Virus record (IMG/VR): IMGVR_UViG_3300029288_000001
Location: 128,001-192,000 of that record
Strand: one strand, 5' to 3'
Source of the DNA: a virus
Taxonomy: Duplodnaviria > Caudoviricetes
Length of the DNA: 64,000 nt
Below, piece after piece: positions 1-53,507 of this stretch (the first letter of the stretch is position 1; every line of letters starts with the position of its first letter). Made by a program: the position numbers and the translations under genes. The notes beneath the pieces were generated by a model. That model did no database searches, had not been told where the DNA came from, and saw only the letters and a list, made by a program, of their open reading frames with translations.

Positions 1-167
1 GTGGTCGTTTGGTAGAACTCGGGCTTCTTATCAGTCTTTACTGCGGTGCCAAGCTTTTGGATTATCGCTTCGGTCTCTTTGATACACGCCGAGCCTTTAT
101 GTCCTTCCGTTTCAACGCTTATTACATCGCCCGTTTCTTCGTTAAAATTAACAATTATCTTTGGTAT
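1..167 (-). CDS. DUF2997-like protein; runs off the window edge; ATA start; missed by the ORF track
   Basis: Translates as (M)PKIIVNFNEETGDVISVETEGHKGSACIKETEAIIQKLG...KPEFY, matching the DUF2997 pattern. SD GAGGTG lies 7 nt upstream of ATA, with an in-frame TAA two codons upstream. The usual DUF1257 and AAA partners are adjacent. Confidence 0.7.
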   Translation of the reverse strand, partial: MPKIIVNFNEETGDVISVETEGHKGSACIKETEAIIQKLGTAVKTDKKPEFYQTT

Positions 168-178
168 AGTTTACCACC

Positions 179-553
179 TCAATATTTTATCATTACAAGT
201 TGTTTCTTTCCGTTCGATTGGAGCATATAGCCCTTCTTCTTCGCCTCGGTGATAATGAGCGTATTGTTATATTCCCGCTTAAACTGCGCGATTAACTCTC
301 TCGAGTTCCGCACTATGAACGGGTCGCACACAATATCGTAAGTGCCAGCTTCGTTCTTCACGAAACCAATATCGTAATTACCACCTACCTTCGATTTTAC
401 CGCAATATTGACCATTTGGGTTTGACCTCCGTAGCCTCGAATGGTAGTGTTGTAAGCTACCTCCATCTTCAAATTCGCAAGAGCTTTGTTAATATATTCC
501 AGACTCTTGAGCATACATTTTACGGTAGTCATGTGGCTCATATTATTCGTCAT
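179..553 (-). CDS. DUF1257 (Ycf35-like) protein
   Basis: Motifs MSHMTTVK...AL..L, RGYGGQ, YDIGF and YDIVCD; lies in an operon with the Ycf46-like ATPase. Confidence 0.75.
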   Translation of the reverse strand: MTNNMSHMTTVKCMLKSLEYINKALANLKMEVAYNTTIRGYGGQTQMVNIAVKSKVGGNYDIGFVKNEAGTYDIVCDPFIVRNSRELIAQFKREYNNTLIITEAKKKGYMLQSNGKKQLVMIKY

Positions 554-2216
554 CCCCCTCTACATTGATTTTTCTTCCTTTTTTGGGCATTTCGACGTTA
601 AAATAATCCTTTGTCTCTTCTATCTTGGAACTCGCGAACCGCGCTTTTTCCGTAGCATATTTGCGATTGAAGTCGATCTTATCCTTTGCCGTCACGCTTA
701 ACGGTCGGAACTCTCGCAAGGATTTAACGAGGTCTTCTTGTTCAAGCTCGTTCCTGCCATCCGCGTAGTACCTTCGTATAGCTTCGCAGATCCGTTTCTC
801 TACTTCTGAGCCGGAGAACTCCTTGCCCTTCTCTGAGCTATATTTTACCAGCTCTTCAATATCGAACTTCTTAGGATCGCATTTATACTTCCGCAATTGA
901 ATGTTCCAAATCTCTCTCAGCTCGTTGGCGTTTGGGAGATCGACAAACCAGATGTCGTCAAACCGTCTAAAAAGCTCGGGAAATTTCCTCTCGATTAGCT
1001 GGATGTCGTTCGCGGTTGCCGCCCAGTAGATCGGGTCGGGACATTCTTGCATAAAAGTGAGCTGTTCTCCGAGAAGTCTTTTAGAAGTTCCTCCGTCCAG
1101 CTCTCCTCCTTCGCCCATCGCCTTGTCGATCTCATCCACGAGCACGACTACGGGAGATATAGCTCGTATGGTCTTGAACGCGATTCGTTGGTTGCTTTCG
1201 GATTCCCCTACGATCCCTCCGAGGAGAGCGGCATAGTTAAGCCTCAACAAAGGAAGCCCTACCTCCGTCGCGATCACCTTCGCGGAGAGCGATTTACCAC
1301 ATCCCGTCTGACCGAAAATAAGAACTCCCTTCGGAGGGGGAATGTCGTGCTTCCGCGCATCAATACTGAACGCGCGTTTCATCCGTAGAATGCTCGTTTT
1401 AAGAAGATCGAGACCTCCAAGCGATTGTATGCTTAAACTCGATGTGTCGTAGAACTCTAACGCTTGGTGTGCCATTTTCTTGATCTCCTCTTCTTTCGCC
1501 TTGATAATGAACGAAGGATTGAACCCTTGAAAGGAGATGTAGCTCTCCATCAATTTGGTTCGCATTATCTCCTCGGGAAGACCAGATAACGACCGTATTA
1601 CGGCTTCTCTCTCTCCGTTCTTGAGCGTGACCACGAGATTACCTCTTTTGAGATTGGCGATCACACCATCAACTATAAACTCGGTCTCGGCGGTGTCAGG
1701 AAACGGATAGTCTACTACTGAAATATCGCTTCTCAAACTCGGAGGCACGACTAAATTTGGAGCTATCAAAATCGCGCTCGAACCAGACCGCCTCAGAAAG
1801 AACGCGAGTTCCCTCAAGGCGCGTTGAACTTGGTTGTCGTTCTGGAGAATCTGATCTAAATCGTTAAAGAAAAATATACAACGGTCTTCCGTCTTGATCG
1901 TCCGCACCTTCTCCATAGCATTGGTAGCGGTTAAAGTGTTCTCATCAAACTTATTGAAGCTCGAAGCTAACGCCATCTCCCAAGTCGTGATCTTGTCTTC
2001 TTTTATTATTTCACGTAATCCCCGCGTTTGGCTCCAGACAAAATACCTGCGGGGTTCAAACCCGTCTTCCTTGTCCAGAACTTCAAATCCTTTTATAACA
2101 TTAGTCATAACCCGCACTTCCTCGGGACTAATAATAAAGTTCAATGGAACTTTAGCTCGAACGCGAGTCCTGACCATTTTTACAGTAGGATTAATAAACT
2201 CGTTATTTGTTGCCAT
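543..2216 (-). CDS. Ycf46-like AAA+ ATPase
   Basis: Walker A GQTGCGKS, Walker B VVLVDEIDK, VGESE pore loop, ATAND and RRFD, plus a degenerate N-terminal AAA domain. Confidence 0.9.
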   Translation of the reverse strand: MATNNEFINPTVKMVRTRVRAKVPLNFIISPEEVRVMTNVIKGFEVLDKEDGFEPRRYFVWSQTRGLREIIKEDKITTWEMALASSFNKFDENTLTATNAMEKVRTIKTEDRCIFFFNDLDQILQNDNQVQRALRELAFFLRRSGSSAILIAPNLVVPPSLRSDISVVDYPFPDTAETEFIVDGVIANLKRGNLVVTLKNGEREAVIRSLSGLPEEIMRTKLMESYISFQGFNPSFIIKAKEEEIKKMAHQALEFYDTSSLSIQSLGGLDLLKTSILRMKRAFSIDARKHDIPPPKGVLIFGQTGCGKSLSAKVIATEVGLPLLRLNYAALLGGIVGESESNQRIAFKTIRAISPVVVLVDEIDKAMGEGGELDGGTSKRLLGEQLTFMQECPDPIYWAATANDIQLIERKFPELFRRFDDIWFVDLPNANELREIWNIQLRKYKCDPKKFDIEELVKYSSEKGKEFSGSEVEKRICEAIRRYYADGRNELEQEDLVKSLREFRPLSVTAKDKIDFNRKYATEKARFASSKIEETKDYFNVEMPKKGRKINVEGDDE

Positions 2217-2989
2217 ATATTTTATTACCTCTTTTGTTTTTTAAATTTTGTCCACTACGATTTGTAATGGCTCTTGCCGGAACGGATCGGATAGGGTGAG
2301 GTGCCAGATTGTTAAACAAAAGAGGTAAAACAAAAATGGTCTTGCGGGGTATCGGATACCGTTCTTTCGGCTTCATAATTAGTTTTTTAAACCTCTTTTG
2401 ATTTTAATTTAAACAATAGTATAATACTAATAAAAAAAATAGTTTATTAAATTTTTGTTTTTTATTCCTATATTGGATACTTCCTCGCGGGAGTAATGAC
2501 CACGCATTTTTCGTGATACCACTCTCGCTCCGTATTGGGATAAATTACTTCCACCGCGTCGTTAGCGTCTAGTTCCTCTTCACACGCATCGCACACGACC
2601 TTTTCAGACATTGGATTTCCCATATTAATCTATATCCTCCACATCTTCGTCGGTAATCTCAAAGACCGTGTTTAACTGCTCAAGGGCTTTATTCAATCTC
2701 TCTCTCGCAAAGTCTATACCCTCGTTTCCCATATCTTCGAGATCGGCTAGGGCGTTGGAAATATTGCCCCATATCTCTAAGATATTATCTCGATTTGCGC
2801 TCTCGAAGTCCATTAGAACGCATCCTCCGAAGTGTTATTCTCGCATTCGTCATTGTTGCAGTGGACACAATCGTTGTTGCAGAAGTTATCGCATTCTCCA
2901 CAATTATTATTGCACACATCATTTCTTCCAAAATTAAAACAAAAACATTCTATTCCATCCATAACATTTTACCTCTTTATTTTTTTATG

Positions 2990-3025
2990 TGCCTTCCGCA
3001 GGACTCGAACCCGCACAGGAAGGCA
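2990..3025 (-). ncRNA. tRNA minihelix-like element (acceptor stem plus T-arm only)
   Basis: Sequence (T)GCCTTCC-tgt-GCGGG TTCGAGT CCTGC-GGAAGGC-A, intergenic. Confidence 0.6.
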
Positions 3026-8930: not shown

Positions 8931-11900
8931 ATGAACGAAAAGAAAGAAGAAAATAGTTTTGAAGACGCTTGTAGAGCCGCCTACAGAGCCAAACAAGAGA
9001 AAGAGCGCGTAGAAAAAGAGCAGGAACGCGAGGATCGGATAAAATGCACTCAAAAGAACTTCGTTGAGAAGATCATGAACCCTAATAAAGGCATTTTTTA
9101 CGAGCTTGTATTTAACATCTGGAAGGTGAAAGGATACGCGCACGCGCTTTATAATCACAATCATGTAGAAAAGATATGCGATCTTAATAACTACGAGGTT
9201 AAGAAGGAAGTTTTATGCGTTCGCGCGTCTCCAGAATTGGCTATCGGAATGGACGAAGACGACATTATTTTATTCGTGCGGAAGTGCGAGTCGTGTAAGG
9301 AGTTTTATGTGATGGAAACATGTTACATTACTAATTTACCTCTCTCTCTTATTGGCGAGATCTTAGACGATCATAAAGAAGACCATCGTTGTTTGTCCTG
9401 TAATAGTAGGGACGAGATAAAAGACATATTAGATAACGAAACGTGAGGTATATTATATGACAGAAGAAAAGAAAACGATCGCGAACAGCAACCGTAATTT
9501 TGTGTTATTACAAGTAATTGTAGGGTTTCTCGTAATAGGAGGGATCGATCTATGCCTCCTCGTGTATCTCGAAGGGGATTATCTCGTGCCCGCGCTCTTT
9601 ACTCTCTGCGCAGCGCCTGTCCCACCAATCGTAGCGTATTATGGCGTGCGCTCGTCGAGTTGGCTCGCCGCTAATGGCGTCTGCCCAGAGTGCCGCGCAC
9701 CTGGATTAGAAGCGTTCTCGGTTCAAGGATATACTGGTGTGACCGTGTATAAATGTAATAAATGCGGAATGGAAGGCAAAATGATCGTGCCCGCGCTACT
9801 TGGTCGAGTAAGAGAATAAAAGGTGAAAAATAACGAGCACGCACGGAGTATTTGTTTTAAAATTAGAGGATAAGATTATAGGATTCCACATGTGTCACGA
9901 CGGGTATAATGTGGTAGACTTTTACGAGTTAAACAAAGGAATAAAGGATCCCAAAGAACTTTTCTGGAAGGCGTTTTACTTCTTCGCCGAAGAGGAATAT
10001 TCGGACTGCCCTGGTATAAACATTTACTCCGAAAAGTTCGATCTCGAAGCGGACTATTCCTCCATTACTTCCTACACGATTTATTTCGACGGGAAAGAAT
10101 GGTCTGGAGATATAAACAAATAATTTTACGATCGTTATTATTGCTTTAGTAATCGGTTTTATAAGGTCTCTAACCCATACGATCTATATGACCGAAGAAA
10201 CCGTGTCTGCCGCGATTCGTAAGATCTACGAGTTTTGCAACGCCTTAAACGGACGCATGGACAATGTAGTGGAAATGATCCGCGTCATAAATATGAAGCT
10301 GACCACGATCGAACAATTTCTAGCGAGACAGTTCGCGCCAAAGACCTTCAAGGACTTCGTTAATACGGAGTAAAATATTATGGACGAGAATACCGATATT
10401 AAATGGACCGATCTTACGATCGAGAGTATGGACGACTTAAAAAAACAACTGAAGAACATGGGCGATCCCATCTTGGAGAAGTTAGTGCTGGACGAACTCG
10501 CTCGTGGGAACCCTTACAGCTTGATCGGACGGCTGCTCTACACCGTCAGCGAATGCCTGTATTTTGCCGACAAGTTCGGTCTTACGGAAGACCTGCTACA
10601 GTCCATGAAGGACAGCGAGTTACTCTAACGAACGAGGAGGTATTTCATGGTATCCGCGTGTAAGATATATTATACCGACAAAACTACGGGAACGATCACG
10701 GACTGCAAGTCCTACGAGATCGTAGACGAGACGGCGGCGTTATTTCATTGTTTCAACTACCATCAGGGTCGGTGGACCGAGATCGTGCCTCTAGAAGAAG
10801 TGTCTCGGATTACCTGGGAGAGGCAGAATAAAACTTTATGGGAACGCAAGGTAACTGTGCGGTCGGAATTTAATAAAACGCGGGGAAGGAAGGAATGATC
10901 GATTGTAAGAAATGTTGGAATTACGAGGTATACGAGGACTTTTTTTCGGGGAACGATCTTTGGAGATGTAACAAATATACATGCCGTTTTATGTCGCGAA
11001 AGCACCGCCTGAGAGCGCGTCGGAGAAAGTTTAGACGGTTTATGAAAGAGAATGGAGTCGTATAAACAATGGGTAGAACTTACTACGGTAAAAACGGTAA
11101 AGACTTCGACACAAATATAGAAGGGGGAAGGTTTCTCGACCAAATTACCTTTGGATTGTTCAAGAAAATAGGTTGTTATCCAAAAACGGACGAGGATTGC
11201 AAGATAGTCGCGCGAATTCTACGGAATAGAGTCAATTTAAACCAATATTGGAGTCCTTTCTTTCTCGAATACGGCGTGGAGAACGAAGGCGAAGGCGCTA
11301 TAAAATGGATGAAGGAAGCGGTCGAGTTCTTCGAGAATTGTGGGGGGTGTATGGAAGAGGAAGAGTGGTACGAGAAGTTTGGAGGAGGAGAACCGTGAGT
11401 TTTTCGATCGAGAAAATAGACATGAGAAATTTGGTAGCGATCGTAGGGTTCGACGACGGTAAATCGTGGGCGTATCACAACAAGGTATTATACGAGAACA
11501 ACCGCGACTTCATAAAATCGAACGCGGTATTTTTAAGTCATGTATCGCATGTAATTATAGATAAGGAGTTGGAGTGGTAAGTATGGTAGAACCGATCGAA
11601 ATAAAAAAATATAGAACGGTAATAGACTACGAGGCGAAGGTGTTACACTTTCCAATCAAAGAGTGTTTTAAAGACTTTCCGAAGTCGGACGAGATCACGC
11701 GCGAGTATATACGGCTAACCGAGGCGCTAAGACCGGAGTATTTCGAGTCCGTGGTAATCAAGAGCGTAGAACGCGTAGAGGAGGGAAAACAAACACATGA
11801 ATAGTTTAAAAGAAATATACGAGAAAAGTAAGGCTGGGTTAATAGAAGAGTTGAAAAAACGCGGGTTCCAGCGAGACGAGCGAATGGGATTATTCGCGAA

Positions 11901-14326
11901 TTGGTGGTTTAAGGACGGCATCGAAGTCTACATAAGCCGCGACTACGACGTCCACGGAATCGACCCCGATCTGAGCGATCGCGAGAACGAATATAACAAC
12001 CGTTACAACGCGCTCGAATACGACCTACTGATCGCGTGGGTGGATAGAACCTTACAACGGAAAAAAGAGGTAAAATAAATGAACAAAATGGAATTAATAT
12101 CGTGGTTGGAAGAACAAGGGTTTAAACCCTACGATCATAGCGATGGGATCGTGCGGTTGTGGAAGGGAGATCTATGTGTTTCTATCTTTAAAGATGGAAA
12201 AGCGCGAGCGTGCGATCTTGGATACGAACTCCCTTCTTTAACGGTAATCTATTGTAACGAATGGGAATACGAGCAGATCGAACGGTGGGTAAACCGGATA
12301 ACATATTACCGATCCCAAAATCAAGAAAAATCGGAGGGAAAATAACACGCATTACATGCTTGGACATTACTTCCCAACGGAGGAAGAGCAGCGGAAAAGG
12401 AACGAGTTCGAAAAAGCGTGTAAGGCGCATCGTAACACGAACCTTCCGTTTAACTACGACGGGAAGACTTTTAAATACTTCGAGCATACCCCACTGATGT
12501 TCCACCCGTTCCGTTTCAAGATACACCTTAAATCGCACGAGTCGATTAGTTTTATCCGCGAGAACGGTCAATGGGAAGAGTATCTAAGGAGCGAAACGTG
12601 GAAGGTGCGAAATTTAATAAAACTATACTGGACTATTAAGAAAAAGGTAAGAGGGAAAAATAAACGACCGAGTTAAACTATTTCGAGAGAAAAATCGAGG
12701 AGATCAAATGCACGATATCCACTTTAGAACGCGACATAAAGGACTACGAGGTAGAAGGTATTTACTTCGAAAGGATTAAGAAAGTTATTCCCGATGTAGT
12801 CGTGGAAGTTACGAAATACCACAAGGAGTGGTTCGAAGCCGAGTCCGTGAACAAGGACTGGGAAGAGCTCTATTTCAAGGAAGGAAGCACCTGCGGAGGG
12901 TATAGTTCTACGCCGATCAAAGTGGGCGGAATAAGAAAAATAGAAGGAAGGTGGGTCCACAGCACGAAAGACCTCGTGATCGCGTGGGAATGTCGTTACG
13001 GAGGGTGCGACGGAGAGTTCGGTATAAAAGAACACTGGGAAGGTTACGAACCGAAGAAAAGTTGGGAAGAACTGGTCAAGGAAGCGTTTGGAGAACGGGC
13101 GGTTCCGATCGTGCGTCAGAAACTAGACGAGCACCCGTATAAGATCGTAGAAGACTACGACGAGGAGGACGAATAGAATGGACGAAAAAGAGCGTGAGTT
13201 CTTAGAGATCGATAACGATCGCATGCCGATATGTAACGATCCTGGAACGCCAAAGCTTATGACCATTAAAAAAAGAATCTCCCGCTTAGAGGACGAGCTA
13301 GCGCGGTTAGAAGACGCAACGCTCGTTATGAACAACAATCTATTAGCGGTGTCGAAAACGCTCGTTCGTATGGGAAAAGCGTTCGAGAAATGCGTATGTC
13401 CCGACTGCGCCGACAAGCCACGGTGTTTACATTTTATACATAAATTTAAAAGGGATTAATAAAATGGATGTAATAGACTTAAACGAGATCGATAAGTTAA
13501 AGAAATGGTTTAAGCGAGGATTTAGAGCGGGAAACGCGTATTGGCATTTCATGAGCCAAGAAAAAGCGGACCGCGTTAGCGAGAACGAGTTTGTGGCAAT
13601 TATTGCCAATCTAAGAAAAATAAAGGAGGACGAGTAATACGACAGACCCGATCACGACAGACCATAAGGAACCGATCGTGGTAAAGAAGGAGTGGACTAC
13701 TGCGCGTAGTTATTCCGAGGAGCATCCGTTCCTAGGATACGCGATCTGCATGGAGTGCGGACAAGGCATTCCCGTGCATAAGGATATGTGGTGGTCGATC
13801 TTCTGTAGCGACAAATGCCACGACAGGTTCTTTAATAAAGCGTATAGAGAGAGCGATAAGAAATGACCGATTGTTTGTTCTCGCGCTACGACCTCGACGG
13901 GTTAGACGGCGATCAAAAAACCTACACTTACGGACAGTTGTTAAACAAATGTAAATGTCCCAATTGCCAGAAAGAAAAAGAGATATTAAAGAAAATAAAA
14001 GAGGAAAAGAAAAAATGAACCAAGAAGAGAGAGAGAAAAGAAAAGAAGAGTTTTTTACCCATTTAAACGATCGAATAAAAAAGAACTTTTTGAAGGTGGA
14101 TAAGATTACCGTGATCAATACCAGCGAGCCCTTCCAGACCCACGAAGAGAAAGAGCTCGTTAACAACGGCTACATTTCGATAGACGAAGGTGGTCTTAGC
14201 ATCATTAGCGTGGATAATGAGAATCCGTTCGATTTATCGATCTGTCCTTCCTATAAGGACGAGCACGAGATAGAGATCGTGATTAAATCCACATTTAAGA
14301 AGTCCAAGAACGAAGATGATAAGTAA
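8931..14326 (+). CDS. Run of about 18 short, co-oriented hypothetical genes resembling early viral genes
   Basis: Tightly packed ORFs with SD sites; several carry CxxC pairs; three appear to start at ACG (9833, 12664, 13639). Confidence 0.6.
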
Positions 14327-21869: not shown

Positions 21870-22934
21870 ATGTTGCAAAAAGATGTGCAATATTGGTTTA
21901 ATGGACTAAGCGTAGAGCAGAGAATGAAGTTAGAAGCAGAATACGATCAATATATAGGTAAAGGTAATAAAGGTGATCACCTTCAAATAATCACTCAAAC
22001 TGGTCCAGCATCAAAATCATACCGCCTTTCTAAGAAAGGAATAGCATTTCTAAACGATAAATGGGATTCGAATAAAAAAATACAGTTGCCATCAATATCG
22101 TTACAGGGTCAGAATTGGATATGCCCATATTGTAGGGGGGAACTAAAAAACCACGCGGATTTATGGGATCATATGAAACAATGTTTAAAAAATCCTGCTA
22201 ATATTCATGCTACTCCTACAGTGCCCAATATTACTCTTCCCGCAACCCCTCCTTCAATACCACCACTTCCTACGCCGTCTACGACCTACACGCCTCCAGC
22301 GAAGAAAGGACCAGTAAAGAAACCATCGACTATAGTTACTAATTCAAATAGTAAGATTCCTACTTCTAAATCGAGTCCTGTAGGAGCGGATGAACAACTA
22401 AATGGGCACGATCTCCAATGCGTGCTTAGAGTTACCTACGACAAGGTTAAAAATCTATACAAAACTCCCAAATGGGAGTGCCAGATCGATGTTGACGATA
22501 CAGATCTTACAAACAAAAAAGTCCAGTTGGAGATGCGCTTCCCAGACGCGGATGGTATAGACTTCAGAGAAGGTATTCCCTACGAGAGAATACACACAGA
22601 AGGGTTCTACCTCGAAGTCGAAGGCGACTTGCAGTGTGGAATGTGTCAAATAATGGAGAACGAAGATATATGCAGAGATGTTCTCACGGACAATACATTA
22701 GTTTGCCGTCCCATTCCCAAGGAGGAAGCAAAAGCGTATACTCCAAAAGGATCGTGGTCGGCGGGAGAGATCAAGGCGTTCGAGGATTGTAAGGAAGTGC
22801 GCGAACGGTATAGAACGCAGCCGTTTTCGAAGAAGATCTTTGACGAAATGGACGACAAGTGCAGGCGCGTGAGTAGCACGGCAATGCAAGAATGGGAAAA
22901 ATCCTTAAAAAAGGAGGAAAAGAAGAATGGATAG
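21870..22934 (+). CDS. Hypothetical protein with a zinc finger and proline-rich linker
   Basis: WICPYC..L......WDHMKQC motif. Confidence 0.7.
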   Translation: MLQKDVQYWFNGLSVEQRMKLEAEYDQYIGKGNKGDHLQIITQTGPASKSYRLSKKGIAFLNDKWDSNKKIQLPSISLQGQNWICPYCRGELKNHADLWDHMKQCLKNPANIHATPTVPNITLPATPPSIPPLPTPSTTYTPPAKKGPVKKPSTIVTNSNSKIPTSKSSPVGADEQLNGHDLQCVLRVTYDKVKNLYKTPKWECQIDVDDTDLTNKKVQLEMRFPDADGIDFREGIPYERIHTEGFYLEVEGDLQCGMCQIMENEDICRDVLTDNTLVCRPIPKEEAKAYTPKGSWSAGEIKAFEDCKEVRERYRTQPFSKKIFDEMDDKCRRVSSTAMQEWEKSLKKEEKKNG

Positions 22935-23048
22935 AGATCTATTGAAGAAACTCGGTATCGGTCTGGCGACCTTTAATATTATTGTCAGTGCCATAACGAT
23001 CGGAATTAACTACCACGATCTTAAAAAAGATAAAACTAGTGAGCAGAC

Positions 23049-23777
23049 ATACCAAAAAAGGAAGAAGTAGACGAAGAGGAACGAGAAGCATATCGGAGAT
23101 ATGTAGACTATAACTATCCCCAAGAGACATACGAGGGGGGTATCACAAGATACTCCGACGAAAAAAAACGGCAAGATAAGCTCATTAAGGATTGTTCTAA
23201 ATATAAAACGAATAAAACTACGAAGCAGATCGAATCTAACGAAGCGGACAAGAAAGAATACATAAAACAAACGAGCGACGCGCTAGACGCGTGTGACGCA
23301 CTACTAGGTGATGTGGAAGCCGTGGCGCGGTCGGAATATAATAAAATACATTCACAATTGTTAAAAGCGTCGTATATTAAACCAGAAGCAGAGTTCAACG
23401 CACTTGGTAAACACGAAGGCGGATATCAATATCTCGTAGATAAGGCGTGTAATAAGGTATTAAAAGACAAGAAAAACGAATTATACCATCAATGTAAGAT
23501 ATATTCAAACACGATGGACTACGCTAAAAGAGCTTGCAATGTATTGGGAGATATAGGTATGGACAAGAACATCTGGGGTGTATATAACTGGGATTGGGAC
23601 GCATCTAGTCGCCACATACATTTATATCATTCGTCCATTGAAATAGTATATAACGAAGTGTATGGCGTATGTCAAGTTGGTCTAGGATTTAAACTACCTT
23701 ACAAATATCCCCACCAGGCATTATCGGACGAAGAACGGGAAGAGAAATTTAACGAACTTCTTGACAAAATAAAATAA
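23049..23777 (+). CDS. Hypothetical protein, extended upstream to an ATA start
   Basis: The frame is open from TGA at 23040; (M)PKKEEVDEEE... adds 88 codons before the GTG at 23313. Confidence 0.6.
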   Translation: MPKKEEVDEEEREAYRRYVDYNYPQETYEGGITRYSDEKKRQDKLIKDCSKYKTNKTTKQIESNEADKKEYIKQTSDALDACDALLGDVEAVARSEYNKIHSQLLKASYIKPEAEFNALGKHEGGYQYLVDKACNKVLKDKKNELYHQCKIYSNTMDYAKRACNVLGDIGMDKNIWGVYNWDWDASSRHIHLYHSSIEIVYNEVYGVCQVGLGFKLPYKYPHQALSDEEREEKFNELLDKIK

Positions 23778-31550: not shown

Positions 31551-33012
31551 TTAGTTATCCTCTTTTAGTACTGATTTATGACATACTATATTAGCAACGG
31601 TATTTTTATCCCTTGAATGAGGGTTAATATCGCATTCGACATTCTCCTTAAAAACAATTAAAATATCTGGTGGTTCTATAGAACCAAATTCAATATGATC
31701 ATAAACTAAGCCTGATGTTTTGGGATAATTAATAATGGGTGGAATAGTAATGGTAGGTTTATAGGTTTCAATAATACAATTATAATAATTATCCTTAATC
31801 ATTTTACATTTAATTTTCCTAATATTTTTAATGTTTTTATATTCAACTTCTTCTTCGGTCATTTCTTTTCGTTCTCTGCCATATTACTTCTTACCTCATG
31901 AATCTCTGAAAGGTATCTACCTTTTCCTTTAACCCATCTCTCTCCTTCTGTAATTTATCGACCATTGCTTCTAACGATTCTTTTTCAATATTCTTTTCAT
32001 TCTTGTCTACGCATTCCATTTTATAATTATAACAACTAATTATTTTCTGATCGTCTATACGATTATCCACCTCGCACGAAAATACCACTTTACGTCCATA
32101 GGGAGTAACCATAAATTCGTTTTTATCCATTACGATGCTTGTTATAGAGCTTGAGGGAAAGTCTATCCACGCGATCTTATCAATATTGATTATAGGAGGT
32201 ATTGAAATAGTGGGTTTATCTATTTGAAACTCGCATTTAGCCCATTTATACTCCTTAGTTGGAGTCTGGCATTTAATCACGCCTATATTCTCTATAGTCT
32301 TTGTATCTACCACGGATCCCACTCCCTCAATTCGCATTTAACTTCGTTATTGTGGCACGTAACTCTAAAGCTTGGATCTCCCCACGCGTTGAATGAGTCC
32401 ACATTACACGAGAAGGTGGCTCCTTTCGCATCTAAATGAGGAGAGATGGTCACGGAGGCACCTTTCTTGTAAAAGAAGTCCACATTCGACGCGTCGGGGA
32501 AGGAAATCTTACTTACTTTACTTAACTCTACGATCGGAGGTATATTAATCGTAGACCGTTGAGTATATAACTTACACTTCGCAGGAACGTAATCCTTTAA
32601 CCCTTCGTTCGGAAACTCGCATTCTACTGCTGTAATATCGCGATAGATTTTCTCAGTCAGTTTTCTCTCCTTCTTGTTTTACTGGTTTTGGAATCCAACA
32701 ATCGAGTTTTTTCCCTAGCATTCCTTGTCCTACATTACATCTGAAGGTCTTGTTGTTGTATAATCTAAAACTAATATAAGCTTGACTGTGGAAGAACTGC
32801 GTGCTAATATCGCCGTCAACGATCACCTCTTGTAGGTCGTCTATTTCTATTATTGGAGGAGTAGAGATCGTAGGTTTCGCGTTCGCTAATTTACACGACG
32901 TGAAATGGCGCGTGAACCAATCGGTTTCCTTTTTTTCGTCGTTCTTACATTCTATTCCAGTAATATTATCGTAGAACACATTTTTGGGAGGTTCTATACT
33001 CTTCTCGGGCAC
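31551..33012 (-). CDS. Four tandem four-Cys family paralogs (31551-31862, 31891-32313, 32307-32660 with CTG start, 32653-33012)
   Basis: Shared TI.[IT]PPI[IV] motif and four conserved Cys; 32307-32660 is absent from the ORF track. Confidence 0.85.
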
Positions 33013-34494: not shown

Positions 34495-34896
34495 ATGGAA
34501 AAGAACGAGATTATAGAAGAGTTCCACCAAATTAAATACATAAAATGCACTCCATTAAAGGATCACCGCTACGAGTGTAGTCTAGATACGGACTACGCGG
34601 AAAATCCAAAACATAAGGTGATCGTAGACGATGTGCGCGTGATGGAAACGCTCTCGTGGTCGCTCTTAAGCGGTCTTTCTATAAAACATAAAGGACCTGT
34701 AATGAAGGTCGATAAAGTCCCTATGGACAATCCAGCTATACGGCAATTAGAAATCGGACACACGAGCGGTTCGCCAGAGCCAGAAATAAGCGCGACTTTC
34801 GCAGAGCCGCTTCATTGCGTGGTATACGACATAAACGGTCTCCATCTCAGTTGTAATGTGTCCGAGCGCGCCGACGAAGGGCTCCTACGGCTTTAG
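34495..34896 (+). CDS. Four-Cys family paralog
   Basis: QIKYIKC...YECSL...LHCVV...LSC. Confidence 0.65.
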   Translation: MEKNEIIEEFHQIKYIKCTPLKDHRYECSLDTDYAENPKHKVIVDDVRVMETLSWSLLSGLSIKHKGPVMKVDKVPMDNPAIRQLEIGHTSGSPEPEISATFAEPLHCVVYDINGLHLSCNVSERADEGLLRL

Positions 34897-36464
34897 TGTT
34901 GCAAGCCTTCCTCCTCTTCCCCTTCCCCTTTAACATATTTATCTAGTTTTTCGAGCCATTCTTCTTCTTTATTACTCCCAGCACAATCTAGATCCTTCGC
35001 ACGGTCCCATTGAGATTCAGCTAGACCTTTTCGCGTAGTACGAACCACGAACTCGTCGTTTGGCTCGATTACCACGATCTTCTTACCTTCTAAATTCTTT
35101 TGAATGTCAGTTCTCTTATTTCTTGCGTCGTATCTGTTAATTTGAATTACATCCTCGTTGTGGTCTTTTATATTCTCGTATTCTTTGATTAGTTTATTGT
35201 CTATAATAAACTCCTTTCCATAATCTCTCTTAAAATCTTCCATCGTGTAATTCTCGTCGAGCGTATCGATATAGTCTCCTGCATCGTTCCTCGTAGATTC
35301 GTAATAAAGATCATCTATTAAATTGTCAAAGTCTGTAGAATATTCTTCATTAAAAGCAACATAATTCTCCGCTATTTCAAGAAAATCCTTCTCTGTTATA
35401 AATAAAGGTATAATACTCTCAGTACCACAATAAATACCTCCTTCGTAGTCTTTTTCGTAGAAGTATACTTTCTTTCCCACATTGTCGCGTATTAAGTCTA
35501 TGAGATCTCTGGGTATATCTGGCACGGCTTTTTCGATCTTGTTTAATACCTTATCCCTATCGAAGTCTACGAGCTTTATTAAATACTCTAACTTGTTTTC
35601 ATCTTTCGATAAATCTTTTAGCGTCCCTGGGAATCTATGGAAATACTCTTGTATACCTCCTTTCTCTGTAGCCCACATCCTTGTGACCTCAGGGGACTTA
35701 CGCATAGATTCCTCTATCCTCTTAATAAAATAGCTTGATACGAGCCCTGGTGCCGCCTTGTTTATCAGTCCATACAATTGGTTCGTAAGCATTGGATCCA
35801 TAATCGATTCTGGGTCAAAATCGTTCTCGATATATCCTTCCATGCTTGAGTTAAACGACCAGAACGAGGTCCTCCTTGGGAAGAACTCCGTCATCTTTCC
35901 CTTTACGGATTCCGAGCTCTCAAATGCCTTGTGCATGAGATCGATTCTCTCTAGAGGAGACATAATCTGGTCGAGTTGTTGATCAAGCGACTTTGAAAAC
36001 TCTGCGGCGCTCTCTGAGGTAAGATTAAAACCTACATTTATGCACGCGTGTTTTCCGTAGGATTTTTTCTTGTCGGGACTAAGAATTTCGTAGTAGCCCA
36101 CATTACCAACATTATCTGGCTCTTTATTAACTACTACCCGTGCGACGAACTTGTCTTTATATGGATATTCTTTCTCTAACGGGAATTTAAGACACTCGTC
36201 CTCGATCTTTCTGGCAAGGAGACCTGTGGCAATGTTACCTACCGTGCCATAAATAGTAAGGGAATTATCTAGCGCTATAGGACATAATTTAACTTTCTCT
36301 TCCTTGGTAGCACCTTCTACGGCGTCCGCGCACGCTTTCGCTTTTAACCGTAGGTCCTTCTTAGAGAACTTCTCGTATTCTTGGTAAGAGACTTTCCACG
36401 GGTCTTTTCCAACGGAGATCTGGCACTGTTTAATCAGATCGTCTCGGTTCTTCTTGGTCTCTAT
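34893..36464 (-). CDS. Large hypothetical protein, paralog of 23881-25968; ATA start
   Basis: The frame is open 121 codons upstream of the GTG and is homologous to the paralog; GAGG lies 8 nt before ATA. Confidence 0.75.
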   Translation of the reverse strand: METKKNRDDLIKQCQISVGKDPWKVSYQEYEKFSKKDLRLKAKACADAVEGATKEEKVKLCPIALDNSLTIYGTVGNIATGLLARKIEDECLKFPLEKEYPYKDKFVARVVVNKEPDNVGNVGYYEILSPDKKKSYGKHACINVGFNLTSESAAEFSKSLDQQLDQIMSPLERIDLMHKAFESSESVKGKMTEFFPRRTSFWSFNSSMEGYIENDFDPESIMDPMLTNQLYGLINKAAPGLVSSYFIKRIEESMRKSPEVTRMWATEKGGIQEYFHRFPGTLKDLSKDENKLEYLIKLVDFDRDKVLNKIEKAVPDIPRDLIDLIRDNVGKKVYFYEKDYEGGIYCGTESIIPLFITEKDFLEIAENYVAFNEEYSTDFDNLIDDLYYESTRNDAGDYIDTLDENYTMEDFKRDYGKEFIIDNKLIKEYENIKDHNEDVIQINRYDARNKRTDIQKNLEGKKIVVIEPNDEFVVRTTRKGLAESQWDRAKDLDCAGSNKEEEWLEKLDKYVKGEGEEEEGLQH

Positions 36465-36585
36465 TTTCTTCGCCTCGCGATCTTTTTGGTTTATCTTCTC
36501 CCGCTGCCGTGTATAACACGCCAGGGAACGCCCGTTTCAAGCGTTCTTTCATTTCCTCGGGGGAAAGCTTTTCTTCGTAGCTCGT
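36430..36585 (-). CDS. Small protein, paralog of 25965-26111; probable ACG start
   Basis: AAGEDKPKRSRGE motif; SD GAGTGA. Confidence 0.55.
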   Translation of the reverse strand, partial: TSYEEKLSPEEMKERLKRAFPGVLYTAAGEDKPKRSRGEENRDQEEPRRSD

Positions 36586-42868: not shown

Positions 42869-42943
42869 AATGGCGTGGGTTAGCATGGTAAGACCGCAAG
42901 GTTCATGCCCTTGAAATCGCTCGTTCAAATCGAGCCGCCATTA
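42869..42943 (+). tRNA. tRNA-Met(CAU), initiator-like (A1:U72)
   Basis: Acceptor AATGGCG/CGCCATT A; anticodon arm CAAGG TT CAT GC CCTTG; T-arm GCTCG TTCAAAT CGAGC; TATA box upstream. Confidence 0.9.
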
Positions 42944-43134: not shown

Positions 43135-44491
43135 ATGGTAGATAAAAAGACTCTCCGCGACGTGGACAGCGTGGTCTGCGAGAACAAGGAGGTATGGAGA
43201 GACACACCTGCGGGACCAGGTCTACGGTTAGAGAAACAATTCGTGGAATGTCGCATATCCCATACGACCGTAGATGTGGAAGGAAAGCCGATGAAGGCAA
43301 TAGAGACCGTGCGAGGCGATGTTGGAGTGGGTATCCACGATCACGCCGCCAGTGCCTATATCTTCGTTCCAAAGAATCCTCGTCAGCGGTATAAAATGGC
43401 GCAGGTTTCTTTTAATTTTCAAGAATCCGACCACATGTATTGCGAAATTAACTCGCCTGGTAACTCCGATCATAAACTCGTAGAGTGCAGTAAGGAGGCA
43501 CGATGACATGGTAAATATGGTAGATAAGAAAGTATATAAAAATGTAGCACATGTAGAATGCTGGCACGATACGAAAAGTAATCCTAGTCACTGTGAAATC
43601 TTTTACGCTATTATCAATATCGAAGGAAAAAAAGAAGAGGTCATTTCACAGATTCAAAACATTTGGCAGGCTAGTTTCGCCGATACACCTGTAAGCGTAA
43701 ATGCGTATGGAAGTTCTCGTGGGCATTTTGCTTTTGATCAGATTAGCGTTAATTTTGATGGAGGAACTGGCAAGTGCGAAGTAGAAGAAGCCATCCATGA
43801 GGGGGGTATAAAAGGTGCTTCAATAAGATGTTATAAGGAGGCACGATAATATGATAGAGAAGAGAACCTTTAACGATGTATCCGCGGTAGATTGTAGTAT
43901 AAATCCAGACGAGAAGAAACTCTACTGTAGTATAGACCATTCCGTGATCGATATAGAAGGAAAATCAATGGAAACGGTAACGCAGCTTCCTCCTTTATAT
44001 GGCGCGTATATGTTCGATCTAATGTATTCTATCGCTAACATGGAAAATTTTACGATCACCAATACTGAGTGGAAATTCAATACTAATGATCACATTCGCT
44101 GCGAATTACTGGATGTTGATAACGATGCTCGCGTAAAACTAAATTGCAGGAAGGTGCTTCGTTAACGGATAAAGTTTATAGAGACATCTACGACCTGCAA
44201 TGTTTTAACAAATACAACGCGTCGGGAGAGAACGAGAATGTGCGGTGTAGAATAGACTACCATATCGTAAATATAGATGGAAAGAAAGAGACTGCGACGG
44301 ATTATATAGAAGGTAAGATAGAAGTAGTCATGAACGCGGTTAACCCTGCCGCTATAAAAATAGATTCCTCTCAAAATAAGCTAGATTACGCGAGGTTTGT
44401 TTTTACCCCTCTCTTATATCAATGCACGCTCCACGAGAATGGTTCTCTCTTAAAATTAGAGTGCGAGAACGCGCCTGAGGAGGAGAAGTAG
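43135..44491 (+). CDS. Four tandem four-Cys family paralogs (43135-43506, 43508-43849, 43851-44165, 44165-44491 with ACG start)
   Basis: Shared [DN][VI][ED]GK motif and four Cys. Confidence 0.85.
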
Positions 44492-44498
44492 AAATATA

Positions 44499-44966
44499 TT
44501 ATAAATCCTTATATTTAATAAATTTAGTTTGTTTAATTTCTGATTCTAGACAATTCCATTTTTTTAATTTATCCTCGTCATTTTTAAGATAGATTGGTAA
44601 CTCAAGCTCCACATATTCTCGATCGTTTTCTTCGTTTTCTTCGTCTGTTTTATGTGGATCGTAATATTTTTGAATTTTTGTATTAAAACCGCATTTAGAA
44701 CCTATATTCATTAAAATCTGGTTGTTTCTTTCGCTATATGGAGTAAACGCTATATATCCTTCCATGCTCAATCCTTTTGGATGATCTTGTTGTAGACCAG
44801 AGCAGGAATGATCCGTATGAGTGCCAGTATAATTAATACGAGAAACTATATCTGCAATTCCTTTATCTACATTATCCCAAGCTACACATACTTCCTTTTC
44901 GTTATCTTTACGAGGATATATAATATACCACTTTTTCTTATTAAACGCACTTTTTTTCCATACTAT
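44499..44966 (-). CDS. Protein with a TYW3-like motif; ATA start
   Basis: The extension contains VDKGIADIVSRIN..G..T..SCSG; an in-frame TGA lies two codons above ATA. Confidence 0.5.
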   Translation of the reverse strand: MVWKKSAFNKKKWYIIYPRKDNEKEVCVAWDNVDKGIADIVSRINYTGTHTDHSCSGLQQDHPKGLSMEGYIAFTPYSERNNQILMNIGSKCGFNTKIQKYYDPHKTDEENEENDREYVELELPIYLKNDEDKLKKWNCLESEIKQTKFIKYKDL

Positions 44967-45484
44967 AGATCATAAGATCGTATTCGTTCTATAAAAAACT
45001 TAATATAAAAGAAAGGGTCTTTAACATCTATGAAAGATTGTACTCGAAGGTTAATACGAAACCTCGTGTCGGGAATCGGACTCGAAGTAATGGCTATTGC
45101 CGCGCACGAATGGACGAAGGACAGAGTGCCAAAAACTGAGTCGAATGTGATCGCGGGAATGTTCGCCGTTACGGGGGGACATTTCATCGGTGCGGGACTC
45201 AATAAATGGCGAAAGTGTAGGCGATAAACATGGCTAAGAACAAGTTTACAGAACTATTAATGGAATTACTCGCGAATCGGTCCACCCACGCGGGCGTGTC
45301 CGATCAATGGAAAATGGCAATGCACCAATGTAACGATCACAAGGACAAGAAGGCGTGCGAACGCGCAGAGAACTATGGTAATGAAGCGACTAAGCTCGAT
45401 AAAGAATACAAGGAAGAGATTGAAGAGCTTAAGAAGCTTGACCCAATGTTCTATAACAAATAAATATTATGGGAGTTAGAAATA

Positions 45485-46451
45485 ATGGACGATATACAGA
45501 CCTTCAAGAATGTAGCGTATGTGTCGTGCGAACTACTTATTCGTTCCCATCATTTTGCGGGACGATCTCCTCCAATTCCACTTAGATGGGATTGTTATAT
45601 TCGCTCCGAGATAGATACCATTGAAGGGGATAAAGAAGGAAGAATCGAGACACTAATAGATCTTGAAGATGTGTTTATAGAAAATGTCTCGCCCGTTAAC
45701 CTACACGAGAGAACGTTTATTATAGGTAATAGCGTGGCTTATCCTCCCAGATACTTTCAATGTAAGTATTATTCCAATCTCCATAAGCTAGACTGCGAGG
45801 TGGCGAAGTAACGACCGACGATAGAAAGAAGTTCAATAAAACAATAGTAATACAATGCGATCCACACCCATCAGAGTATAATGTAGCTACTTACCTATGC
45901 GATCTCCACCACGAGGTTGTCACGGTCGAGGGGAAAGAGGAATCATACCTAGAAAAACTGCCCGTAGATCACATCGCGGTTCAACCAAGAACTAATGTTG
46001 GTTTCTATGTTCATGGACGAATGATCCAGATAGGAAGTCGTTCCTTACCTCTATTGGGTCTCCCTCAAAAATACATGAAGTGCGAGTATATTCCGTCTAT
46101 CTACCAATTAAACTGCGAGGGGATTGACTAACGAACATAACCATTAAGAACGTGATTAACATAGGATGCGAGGAGGACCCTCAAAATCATTTAGACGACC
46201 TCTATGGATGCTTAATCTCGTATAGAGCCATGGATGTAGAAGGAAAGGAATCCATCTTCCACAAACATGTGCATAACGCGATCCATATAGATACGAATAG
46301 AGTAGGCTTCCATAGATCGTCGTGGGACGAGGACACTCCTACCATGGAGGTTTCCTTCCGCGAAGAGATGGACGGAAAAGTCTCGTGCTCCATTCGAGAG
46401 ACTGGTTTAAACGGAGCATATCACAATATCGAGTGCCACAAAGAAGAATAA
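45485..46451 (+). CDS. Three tandem four-Cys family paralogs (45485-45811, 45811-46131 with ACG start, 46131-46451 with ACG start)
   Basis: [IV]EG[KD] motif; TAACG stop/start overlaps; the middle gene is absent from the ORF track. Confidence 0.8.
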
Positions 46452-47869: not shown

Positions 47870-48891
47870 TTACTTTTTCTCGTCGCGCGAGCAGAATATT
47901 TCGTTGGTCTTGGAACGGTTTCCCTCCTCCGATCTAACTAAACACTTGCCATTCCCTTGACTATAATGGTAAGCTAACGCGCCATCGGATGTGTATTTAT
48001 GCATGAACGCGCTTGACGGATCGTATACGGATACATCCATGTCTCCTTGAAACTCTTGGGTGTGCGTGTCCTTCTTCCCTTCAATGTTAATATAAGTGCT
48101 CATGATAGAACATTCCGTAGTTATATTACCCCCGTGTCGCTCGCACCGTATGTAGATCACATCGTTAATAGTCTCGCTCTTGTCTACCATTCTCTACTTC
48201 TCCATTGGCTTGCATATAATAGCTATTGTGTCGTGATCGTCTGGCTCTCTTTTCTCTAAAGTGACTACTTCGCATTGTGCTCGTGCGCTTGGATAGTAGT
48301 TGAGGATTATTCCTCTCTTATGAATTCCTTCTCTTGAGTGTATTCCCGCACCAACTGTGTTTGTGGCGTGTAAATCAACAACACCGTTATACTCGTTTGT
48401 TTTTGGCATTGGTCTTCCTTCGACATCTATAACAAAGTATTGAACTTTACACTCGTAGTAATCCATAAAAGGAGTAGCCTTTTGCACATTACATCTTATT
48501 TGGCTTACTTCATTGAGCACTTCTTTTCCACTTGGCATTTATTTACCACCAATTATTCTTCCGTTTCCTCAAATCCTATTGTTTTTCCGTGCCAATCTAA
48601 TTTAAAGGTCTGACACTTTAATACTTCTCTGTTGGGCTCGTTATATTCCTTCGCGTCAAAGTCACACACGAAAAAGGATTTTTCTAAAGGCTTAAAATCT
48701 ATAGTGTCGTATTCTGGATAGCTCGTGGCGGTTGTTTCGTAGCCTCCCTTGATCTCTATCCTCTTAATACCGCGATAGGTTCTCCCAATATCGTTTGGCA
48801 TGTCAAACATGCAGGTATACTCGGTGTCTCCCTTCTTCTTGTTGCAACCGATGAAAGAAACCTCGTTCTTGAACTTAACCTCTTCTTCCGT
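47870..48891 (-). CDS. Three four-Cys family paralogs (47870-48190, 48194-48538, 48553-48891 with ACG start)
   Basis: N[DE]V..I.C...C pattern; INIEGK and IDVEGR motifs. Confidence 0.8.
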
Positions 48892-48897
48892 GTCCTA

Positions 48898-51413: not shown

Positions 51414-51928
51414 TTATTCTTCCTCCTCCTTTATAATCTATCCTCTAATTTCTTAATAAATTTCTTAAAGATCTTTTTAAGTCCTTGAACGCCAGTTAGA
51501 TATCCTTCCGATTTTACTATTTCCTGCATTATTTCTGGTATTTCAAGTAGGATTTCCTTTCTACACGAGTCCTTCATTTTGGTATCCTTAACCACTTTCT
51601 TAAACTCCTCGAGTTTTGGATACCACTCGTTGATTCCCTTATTGATCGTGGCTTTGTTCTTAGTATAATAATTACATTTCTCCAACGCGTCCATTCCAGA
51701 CTCGTGACCATACATCTTTAGAATATTGATCTTGGAATTTATGTACTCTTTATCCACGAAACACACGGACTTCGTTAGATCGCGAAATATATCGCCTATA
51801 GCTTCGATAGCAGCTTGCCCAAATGGGTCTCTATGCTCTATAATCGTGTCTTGGTATTTAAATAACTTATCTAACGCGGCTTTATCACAGGTATGTGTAT
51901 CTATCTTACATTGTTTTGGTTCTACCAT

Positions 51929-52342
51929 TTATCTTCCTTCTTTCTTGCAATTGATCTCCATTGGAGGGAGGTTACTCTGCGAGCTTGACACCGCGCATTT
52001 GGTGCGGGCATCGAAAGTGATCTTATAGGTGTTCTTTCCCTTATTGTTCTTACCCAGTTCCGTAGAGACCGTGTTCCCATAGGTTCTTAGATCCTTAACA
52101 TCCTCTACAGTAGCTATTATCTTGTCCTGATGTTTATCCCAATCGTAGACCGACGATGGTGGTGCTTTTAGGTCGCACTTCCATAAGGTGGTCTGGACTT
52201 CGCATTCGATAGAGCTAATAAACTTATTTTTAAGAAGAGCCTGCCAATCCCTCTCTCTATTCTCCTTTTTTCTTTCTTTATTTTCCTCTATAAGTTCTCT
52301 TTGTTTTTGCCAGAACGATTTTTCCTTTTCTTCTTCCGTCGT
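51929..52342 (-). CDS. Four-Cys family paralog with a charged N-terminus; ACG start; missed by the ORF track
   Basis: GGAGG-7 nt-ACG; (M)TEEEKEK...ISSIEC...WKCDL...TKCAV...EINC. Confidence 0.75.
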   Translation of the reverse strand, partial: TTEEEKEKSFWQKQRELIEENKERKKENRERDWQALLKNKFISSIECEVQTTLWKCDLKAPPSSVYDWDKHQDKIIATVEDVKDLRTYGNTVSTELGKNNKGKNTYKITFDARTKCAVSSSQSNLPPMEINCKKEGR

Positions 52343-52363
52343 AACTATGCCTCCTTCTTTATT

Positions 52364-52720
52364 CTACTCTTCTTTAATTTCTACATTCTTACATATGATA
52401 TTCTTAGAGTCCTTAAAAGTGCAGTTCTTTCCCTGTAGTGCGGTTCGTTTATTTGTTTTTTCGTCGAGGATCGTTAGATTAAGATTCCCTTTTAAAAGTT
52501 CCTCCGCGAGGTCGAGACCATCGTAGTAGTTGTGGAACTCGATAATGTGGTGCTTAGTTATAATCTTCGCTATTATATCACTACGCGTGTGCTCGCGCTC
52601 TACGGTAATTCCCCGCTCTAATTGAACGGAGTCGTAGTCTGCGTCGGGCTTGGTGTCTAAGAGCATGCATTTTTCTATTAAACTCTCTTCGTATTTTCTT
52701 TCTTTTTCTTTTTCTTCCAT
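52364..52720 (-). CDS. DUF5661-like protein
   Basis: QLERGITVEREHT...AKII..HH..EF..YY..L. Confidence 0.6.
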   Translation of the reverse strand: MEEKEKERKYEESLIEKCMLLDTKPDADYDSVQLERGITVEREHTRSDIIAKIITKHHIIEFHNYYDGLDLAEELLKGNLNLTILDEKTNKRTALQGKNCTFKDSKNIICKNVEIKEE

Positions 52721-52723
52721 ATT

Positions 52724-53182
52724 TTATTTTCCTCTCTTTCTCCATTTATATATTTGTTTAAGTGGATCTCCCGACCAGAGGTTGTAAGTAACAACGGTAT
52801 TCGCTAAAGGACATCCTATCTTCATTTCGTCCATAACATTACGATCCGCGTAGGCAAAATCGCTCTCCGATGCTTTACAATGATATGGATCTGTCGTTGA
52901 TGGATGCGTGTGGAAATAACTAAGGATCTGATCTTCGGCATAATCGGGGCTAAAACTCTCGTCATTCCACTCTTCTTCTTCTACTTCTCTAGTTTCCGCC
53001 GTATGTACAGATGTACAATTCCCTTCGTAAATATGAAAAACGGGCGTATCATCCTCCTCGTAGATAAACGAGTGCTCGTTTCCCGTCTTCTTCGTTTCTT
53101 CCATGCAATAGTTGATAGCTTCTTTAAGAGACATACCATACGCTGTTCTTTTGATCTTACAACTATCTTCGTCGATCATCAT
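52724..53182 (-). CDS. JAB/MPN-domain metalloprotease-like protein
   Basis: TGNEHSF...FHTHPS......SESD. Confidence 0.7.
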   Translation of the reverse strand: MMIDEDSCKIKRTAYGMSLKEAINYCMEETKKTGNEHSFIYEEDDTPVFHIYEGNCTSVHTAETREVEEEEWNDESFSPDYAEDQILSYFHTHPSTTDPYHCKASESDFAYADRNVMDEMKIGCPLANTVVTYNLWSGDPLKQIYKWRKRGK

Positions 53183-53507
53183 TTTAGATCACTCTTTATT
53201 TATCTTACATTGAACCTGCTCATAGTCTTGACACTTCTCTCTCGCGCGAACTACCATTTGAACGAGCTGGGGTATACCGTAATATAACCGATCTTTATTA
53301 TCGTCGATCCAACCCTTTACTACCTCGGGATCGTGTCCTTTAAGGATCTTGTCCACAGATAATTCGCATAAGTTCTTCATTTTTTCGCACGCGCCTTCCT
53401 TCGTCTTCGCGTCTTGCCAAGCCTTCTCGTAGGTAAACGGAAACTCTTCTAAGTCCTTTGGATCTACTGGTCCTGTAAGGATCGTAGTCAATAAATCGTC
53501 GATCGTA

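Follow-up and report, generated by a model that had tools for sequence, protein, structure and literature searches.

About 25 genes of a 224,826-bp viral contig, 6-8% of its genes, begin with ACG, a codon that is used there about as frequently as GTG, and translation of these genes probably begins at near-cognate codons positioned by Shine-Dalgarno (SD) motifs and read by the host's own standard initiator Met-tRNA. The region studied most closely, hereafter the window, is a stretch of 64,000 nucleotides comprising bases 128001-192000 of the contig, an IMG/VR virus record (IMGVR_UViG_3300029288_000001) with direct terminal repeats and an estimated completeness of 100%; positions below refer to the window unless they are given as genome positions. 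A strong GGAGGTGA-type SD motif precedes nearly all viral genes, and most of the ACG-started genes are small accessory genes or members of expanded paralog families.

The start-codon census used a three-periodic Markov coding model trained on the whole viral genome, with which about 408 non-overlapping stop-to-stop coding frames were chosen; within the first 20 codons of each frame, codons were tabulated against their distance from an SD match. At SD spacings of 6-12 over the whole genome, ACG ranks second (31 occurrences), behind ATG (131) and ahead of GTG (15) and the still rarer TTG, and its spacing profile is that of ATG, with a peak at 9 nt for ACG and at 8-9 nt for ATG. Among the 136 of about 408 frames that lack an SD-led canonical start, ACG occurs 19 times at spacings 7-11 versus twice at twelve flanking spacings (binomial P 8.7e-9). 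Non-ACG codons at spacings 7-11 in these frames are enriched about 3-fold at most, and ATA, found 10 times inside and 12 times outside that interval, does not reach significance (P 0.08). ACG is the sole non-canonical codon enriched at SD spacing. A simpler count of trinucleotides anchored on all SD-like sites was too noisy, ACG being the commonest Thr codon, and the start-zone analyses were used in its place. Manual inspection of the viral genome gave a list of about 27 credible ACG starts among 408 open reading frames (ORFs), of which one, at 6035, was later dropped on account of an in-frame TTG three codons upstream.

In their setting the ACG-started genes resemble those started by ATG. The distance to the upstream gene is 5 nt or less for 14 of 27 ACG genes and 75 of 155 ATG genes; the distributions are the same, so that ACG is not limited to coupled overlaps and translational coupling is not a general explanation. 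Median lengths are 106 and 120 amino acids, respectively, and the SDs of the ACG genes seem stronger than those of the ATG genes, in a comparison that is not clean because the list was partly selected on the SD.

An earlier note on the window had described pervasive non-AUG initiation from 16 codons, comprising ten ACG, five ATA and one CTG. All 16 lie at the positions and on the strands that it gave, and the four genes that it reported as missing (1-167, 32307-32660, 45811-46131 and 51929-52342) are indeed absent from the list of ATG/GTG/TTG ORFs. The generalization stands for ACG, with ten sites at ATG-like SD spacing and an enriched codon, and plausibly for CTG; for ATA it mostly does not. 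The ten predicted ACG-started genes of the window are as follows, and the TAACG overlaps reported at 44165, 45811 and 46131 are present.

9833..10123 (+): ACG gene, 96 amino acids; SD AGGTGA, spacing 9; in-frame stop two codons before the ACG, first canonical codon 19 codons after it.
12664..13176 (+): ACG gene, 170 amino acids; ACG right after an in-frame TAA, no ATG in the ORF, first GTG 46 codons in, coding potential from codon 1.
13639..13866 (+): ACG gene, 75 amino acids, with a weak treble-clef zinc-finger match; SD AAAGGAGG, spacing 9.
44165..44491 (+): ACG member of a Cys-rich family, 108 amino acids, TAACG overlap with the upstream gene; SD AGGTG, spacing 10; ACG aligns with the paralog Met before the conserved N-terminal Cys.
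45811..46131 (+): ACG paralog, 106 amino acids, TAACG overlap; SD GAGGTG, spacing 10; first canonical codon 70 codons in; start placed by paralog alignment.
46131..46451 (+): ACG paralog, 106 amino acids, TAACG overlap; SD GAGGGG; in-frame stop one codon upstream; start placed by paralog alignment.
36430..36585 (-): ACG small ORF, 51 amino acids, overlapping and preceding the large ORF 34893-36464; homologous to the ATG-started small ORF 25965-26111.
48553..48891 (-): ACG paralog, 112 amino acids, with the weakest SD of the ten; in-frame stop one codon upstream, first ATG 27 codons in, family Cys block ahead of that ATG.
51929..52342 (-): ACG-ACG gene, 137 amino acids; SD AAGGAGG at spacings 7 and 10 from the two ACGs; first canonical codon 117 codons in.
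53189..53506 (-): ACG gene, 105 amino acids; SD AGGAGG, spacing 6; the next codon, ATC at spacing 9, is an alternative; TTG five codons in, without an SD.

Further possible ACG starts beyond those ten lie at 12347 (+) and 28468 (+), where 9 nt separate the SD from the ACG and at least 18 nt separate it from the annotated ATG (3 and 10 codons downstream, respectively).

The N-termini that begin at ACG behave as coding sequence. The stretches from ACG to the first canonical codon (median 20 codons, 749 codons in total) score +0.22 bits per codon in frame versus -0.63 and -0.89 in the shifted frames, and the in-frame score is the best in 24 of 27 ACG genes. Three of the ACGs stand directly after an in-frame stop, which makes an upstream start impossible. 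The earlier note had held that the added N-termini restore homology, and three families bear this out. In a DUF1281/Api92-type protein the sequence from ACG reads TPNWCECNLSVVG, matching residue for residue the MPNWC.N.L..G with which seven homologs begin; in the database this protein (P0122) is called from a GTG 10 codons further on, and the MPNWC motif is lost. The GS motif of an RlaP-type nucleotidyltransferase lies upstream of its first ATG. In a family of small Cys-rich proteins, with 19 members in the viral genome, the initiator Met of ATG-started paralogs corresponds in alignments to four ACGs (44165, 45811, 46131, 48891) and to the CTG at 32660, and initiation further downstream would remove a conserved Cys that follows these codons. 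The ACG-started members are spread over different BLAST subgroups beside ATG-started members, and because of this scatter the switch from ATG to ACG in the family probably occurred several times.

A pair of homologous small ORFs supplies a further comparison. Those at 25965-26111 (-) and 36430-36585 (-), each encoding about 50 amino acids, share the motif AAGED.P.R.RGE, and each overlaps the 5' part of its own large gene; the two large genes are paralogs without canonical starts. The frame offsets between small ORF and large gene differ (-1 and +1), which makes a shared programmed frameshift unlikely.

These features bear on the view that ACG marks a recent loss of the start codon, the genes concerned being moribund or translated in shortened form from downstream canonical codons. 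The affected genes are mostly small, of unknown function and members of expanded families, on which selection is likely weak, and a genome richer in GC than its host would be expected to mutate from T to C. Nevertheless the frames are intact, the N-terminal stretches are coding, and conserved catalytic or structural motifs precede the first canonical codon. Moreover, random decay predicts ATA, through G-to-A change, about as often as ACG, together with loss of the SD, but only ACG is enriched. Decay is on these grounds improbable.

Misreading of ATG as ACG in sequencing or assembly can be assessed as well, the genome being present in one sample only, a landfill metagenome. In a Logan assembly of the same landfill run, window positions 44000-53600 (9.6 kb with six ACG starts) are identical at about 17x word depth; the run assembled is probably the source sample, and identity of the bases excludes an assembly artefact only. 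A second assembler thus showed no differences over six of the sites; errors would in addition have to strike position 2 of start codons specifically, and an ACG start of atpC, considered below, recurs in 18 independent Asgard assemblies. The chance that error accounts for the ACGs is negligible.

The virus carries an MCM helicase and a RadA/Rad51 recombinase, the core of which is 71-75% identical to RadA from metagenome-assembled genomes of Promethearchaeota (Asgard archaea: Lokiarchaeia, Hermod-, Hod-, Thor- and Odinarchaeota). The closest RadA lies on a cellular contig that also bears genes for Arf/Ras GTPases, Roadblock and RING proteins. The viral tRNA-Leu(UAA) and tRNA-Ser(GGA) contain introns. 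On the strength of the RadA identity, the intron-containing tRNAs and the strong SD motifs, the contig is regarded as a large virus or virus-like element with an Asgard archaeal host. The viral RadA (genome 64497-65897, -) has an N-terminal extension of about 140 residues, and its Asgard homologs are likewise long (400-433 amino acids). Relatives of the virus were found neither in the phage collection, by DNA or by protein, nor in IMG/VR with the MCM or a 773-residue viral protein as query, and among 5.8 billion proteins the latter matched only itself.

Evidence on the initiation machinery comes from core genes of the host lineage. In 24 genomes of the Lokiarchaeia type, class-level relatives of one RadA-donor genome that all show the conserved N-terminal motif of AtpC, the atpC start position reads ACG AGY in 18, ATG in four, TTG in one and ATA then ATG in one; a GGTGA motif precedes the ACG, which in one genome immediately follows an in-frame stop. 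At the start position of atpD, low-GC genomes of the Lokiarchaeia type have ATT, ATA, ATC or ATG, and in 30 Asgard genomes taken phylum-wide, only TTG, ATG and GTG candidates were seen near the atpD start, with no SD-positioned ACG. For aIF1, the start-codon proofreading factor, 21 of 30 genomes of the Lokiarchaeia type have no ATG, GTG or TTG from the stop that precedes the gene to its zinc-knuckle motif, and in these an ATT, ATC or ATA follows a AAAGGTTGTGA-type motif. Because of the starts of atpC, atpD and aIF1, the host machinery is taken to accept near-cognate codons, and near-cognate initiation would be an ability of the host lineage that is used lineage-wide in core genes.

The frequency of ACG is another matter. 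When Asgard chromosomal DNA flanking radA (784 kb, about 47 genomes) was subjected to the same census, no enrichment of ACG was found, and at most one credible ACG start was found among 407 ORFs, versus about 27 of 408 in the virus (Fisher P 1.4e-7). The earlier note had asked whether these starts are a trait of the host and not of the virus, and the answer is divided: the ability to use near-cognate codons belongs to the host lineage, and the frequency of ACG is special to the virus. Near-cognate starts lean to ATA and ATT in the AT-rich hosts and to ACG in the more GC-rich virus, a difference that fits start codons drifting with base composition on tolerant machinery. The earlier note had favored a relaxed or regulated choice of start as a layer of expression control; the data are explained equally well if the starts of small accessory genes simply drift under a tolerant host machinery.

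Several points weigh against initiation at ACG by the host machinery as the explanation of these genes. In view of the host census, tolerance by the host cannot alone explain a viral ACG frequency about 25-fold higher. The virus has 41% GC, and its closest RadA donors have 24-35%. The list of credible ACGs was partly chosen by SD strength, which biases both the count of about 25 and the impression of stronger SDs. At 6035, 9830/9833 and 53503 a neighboring ATA, ATC or TTG may be the true start. Finally, one DNA run and no RNA run is listed as containing the viral sequence.

Initiation at ACG by the host initiator tRNA would proceed as follows. The small ribosomal subunit would be positioned by strong pairing with the GGAGGTGA-type SD, and ACG, with its mismatch at codon position 2, would be taken in the P site at lower efficiency, an acceptance permitted by relaxed or tunable start-codon proofreading in the presumed host lineage, the Lokiarchaeia-type Asgard archaea. 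The output from an ACG read by the initiator Met-tRNA would lie below that from ATG, low expression being either set in this way or simply tolerated. A more elaborate possibility, speculative and rather unlikely, is that ACG constitutes a deliberate second class of start, the output of which is set by the stringency of aIF1, whose own gene has AUU-type starts; changes in aIF1 induced by infection, possibly with a viral tRNA lacking t6A, would then jointly switch on the approximately 25 viral genes.

The tRNA in question is encoded in the window.

42869..42943 (+): initiator-type tRNA(CAU); Rfam tRNA 57.8 bits, A1:U72 pair, no intron.

A default Rfam pass over the whole window had missed this gene. 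Its best matches in five host genomes are Asgard initiator tRNAs, to which it is 73% identical; these were found by BLAST with the viral tRNA, a pattern search for canonical arms being useless owing to introns of about 30-36 nt in the anticodon loops of the host initiators. The viral loop reads UUCAUGC versus CUCAUAA in the host, with U32, G37 and C38, and an A29:U41 pair replaces G29:C41. It might be supposed that this tRNA, with an altered loop and a G37 unable to carry t6A, relaxes start recognition during infection and lets viral mRNAs be read from ACG. The tRNA is real by its score, has the A1:U72 hallmark of archaeal initiators and differs from the host exactly in the anticodon arm, and in yeast the loss of t6A37 roughly doubled the number of genes with non-AUG starts, ACG included, from 98 to 169 (PMC4717488). 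Yet its anticodon is still CAU, and host atpC uses ACG without it. Initiator-like tRNAs with the same loop, in a GG-UUCAUGC-CC anticodon arm, occur in more than 109 IMG/VR phage contigs, and in about 970 kb around them on 109 of these contigs ACG is not enriched at SD spacing (10 versus 34 overall, and 1 versus 10 in ORFs without a canonical start). To our knowledge this widespread class of phage initiator tRNAs has attracted no discussion. Furthermore, changes in the anticodon loops of phage tRNAs already have an explanation, in that such mutations evade host anticodon nucleases (PMC10264068). The differences of the viral initiator-type tRNA are likewise concentrated in the anticodon loop, and evasion would be the more economical explanation of its UUCAUGC loop; it concerns the tRNA only, and the comparison across phages gives no link to ACG starts. 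A role for the tRNA in relaxing start recognition is thus quite improbable. In the same phage loci, a separate observation concerns the ORFs that lack a canonical start: CAA and CAG show 14- to 18-fold enrichment there at SD spacing, which may reflect redundant contigs or recoded stops.

A tRNA that reads ACG directly was also sought, but no CGU-anticodon tRNA turned up in the viral genome, whether with ARAGORN (introns allowed or not), in a genome-wide Rfam scan or by pattern search. A low-threshold ARAGORN call, Thr(cgt) at genome 203813-204174, is spurious, with poor stems and an antisense position within a predicted coding ORF.

Plant organelles edit ACG to AUG at start codons, and the virus resembles them in having genomic ACG at the initiator Met position of intact genes. 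C-to-U editing of the viral mRNA would accordingly turn ACG into AUG; ACG is one transition from ATG, and the same logic covers CTG as derived from TTG. The virus gave no hit to PF00383, the CDA-type deaminases and the one family of editing enzymes searched for, and we know of no archaeal system for C-to-U editing of mRNA. Searches of the virus for the initiation factors SUI1/aIF1 and eIF-1A (aIF1A) were likewise negative. An editing system would need to recognize about 25 unrelated contexts with the SD alone in common, and the AUH starts of the host lineage are irreparable by C-to-U change. Editing is not needed to account for the data and is very improbable.

The CTG and ATA sites differ among themselves. 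The earlier note had treated the five ATA codons alike; one of them is convincing and one possible, whereas the codons at 23049, 44966 and 36464 are better explained otherwise. The ATAA overlap that it described at 25968 is present.

32307..32660 (-): paralog with CTG start, 117 amino acids; 59 codons from CTG to the first canonical codon; SD AAGGAG, spacing about 6; alignment of CTG with the paralog Met.
1..167 (-): DUF2997 gene with ATA start, 63 amino acids; SD GAGGTGG, spacing 9; 3' end and stop 22-25 nt before the window start.
23881..25968 (-): large gene, 695 amino acids from ATA; SD-like purine run AGAGGAGAGG 7 nt upstream, first ATG 74 codons in, ATAA overlap with the small ORF 25965-26111.
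34893..36464 (-): large paralog; ATA 36464 without an SD, inside the overlap with the ACG-started small ORF; paralog alignment indicates a different codon.
22927..23777 (+): two frames, probably of one gene, joined by a -1 change; ATG 22927 behind a perfect SD (GGAGG, spacing 9), A6 run at 23054-23059.
44499..44973 (-): gene with a +1 frame change; A7 run at 44951-44957, ATA 44966 without an SD.

Given its SD and the paralog alignment, a CTG start at 32660 is plausible. The DUF2997 gene has a 64-codon open frame without any ATG, GTG or TTG, and it matches Pfam DUF2997 with 36.8 bits (cutoff 24.1), profile position 11 falling at residue 16; the predicted ATA start at 167 is convincing. For the large gene at 23881..25968, initiation at the ATA is possible; the data fit equally well with a start at the neighboring ATT, with coupling, or with frameshifting out of the conserved small ORF upstream. 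A start at ATA 36464 of its paralog appears doubtful. At the 23049 locus the frame from ATG 22927 runs for 47 codons, encodes a membrane-like segment and ends at 23070, and the long frame opens without an SD three codons before the A6 run, with the ATA two codons before the run; in place of an ATA start, a frameshift, slippage or an indel at the A6 run is the simpler reading. The ATA at 44966 is likewise doubtful as a start, with ATGs at 44973 and 44961 in the neighboring frame behind a TATA-like box. The A6 (23054-23059, +) and A7 (44951-44957, -) runs, each at the very point where a short frame with a proper start passes into a long one lacking a start, are candidate sites of frameshifting or slippage, or else mark indels or pseudogenes. 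A genome-wide search for frame junctions at homopolymers was uninformative, as A-runs belong to most SD regions.

Initiation at ACG has precedents outside the prokaryotes. VP2 of adeno-associated virus and the C' protein of Sendai virus start at ACG, and yeast ALA1 starts at a pair of ACG codons (PMC4717488), a tandem that has a counterpart in the window at 52342/52339. As proposed for the Asgard virus, the initiator tRNA in these cases reads ACG at lower efficiency, yielding there low-abundance or alternative products. Unlike them, the virus would select the codon by means of the SD on polycistronic mRNAs instead of scanning and Kozak context, and ACG serves as the sole start, in 6-8% of genes, not as the start of an alternative isoform.

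Among prokaryotes, bacterial non-canonical starts offer a parallel, especially the AUU start of infC, which is autoregulated through proofreading by its product, IF3. There, too, near-cognate initiation is SD-led, and the host-lineage aIF1, with mostly ATT, ATC or ATA, mirrors infC. Non-canonical starts in bacteria amount to a handful per genome, with ACG among the weakest codons, and we know of no bacterial genome or phage in which ACG is used about as often as GTG; the density of ACG use in this virus appears unprecedented. In archaea, ribosome profiling of Haloferax volcanii placed about 30% of putative alternative start sites at near-cognate codons, which the authors set aside as possible false positives (PMC7261190). 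Those sites resemble the viral ones in being archaeal and near-cognate, and differ in not being tied to SD motifs or whole genes. A full-text literature search gave no report of ACG starts in archaea, those of the Asgard lineage and their viruses included.

ACG is absent as a start from every prokaryotic genetic-code table, and as a result gene finders truncate or drop such genes, as with the four missing in the window and the conserved domain cut in one database call. Should initiation at ACG prove routine among Asgard archaea and the viruses that infect them, N-termini are systematically misannotated throughout the lineage. Tolerance of near-cognate codons, together with a weakly started gene for a proofreading factor, would then predate the eukaryotes, with a bearing on the evolution of eukaryotic start-codon selection. 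With about 25 SD-ACG genes on one 225-kb molecule, the virus is the densest natural test set so far.

Other features of the genome concern tRNA metabolism and DNA modification. A tRNA cluster identified with ARAGORN at 16598-17502 (-) comprises Pro(UGG), Ile(UAU), Cys(GCA), Ser(GGA) with a 55-nt intron, and Leu(UAA), the last with a 499-nt intron containing an ORF. A CCA-adding enzyme is encoded at 36602-38089 (+) and the RlaP-type RNA-repair nucleotidyltransferase at genome 58630-59370 (-); together with the tRNA set these genes suggest upkeep or repair of tRNAs by the virus during infection. At genome 65985-68321 (-) lies an N6/N4 DNA methylase gene with an inserted, intein-like LAGLIDADG homing-endonuclease domain and a C-terminal Mrr-type nuclease domain, in which the first canonical start is 40 codons inside the open frame.

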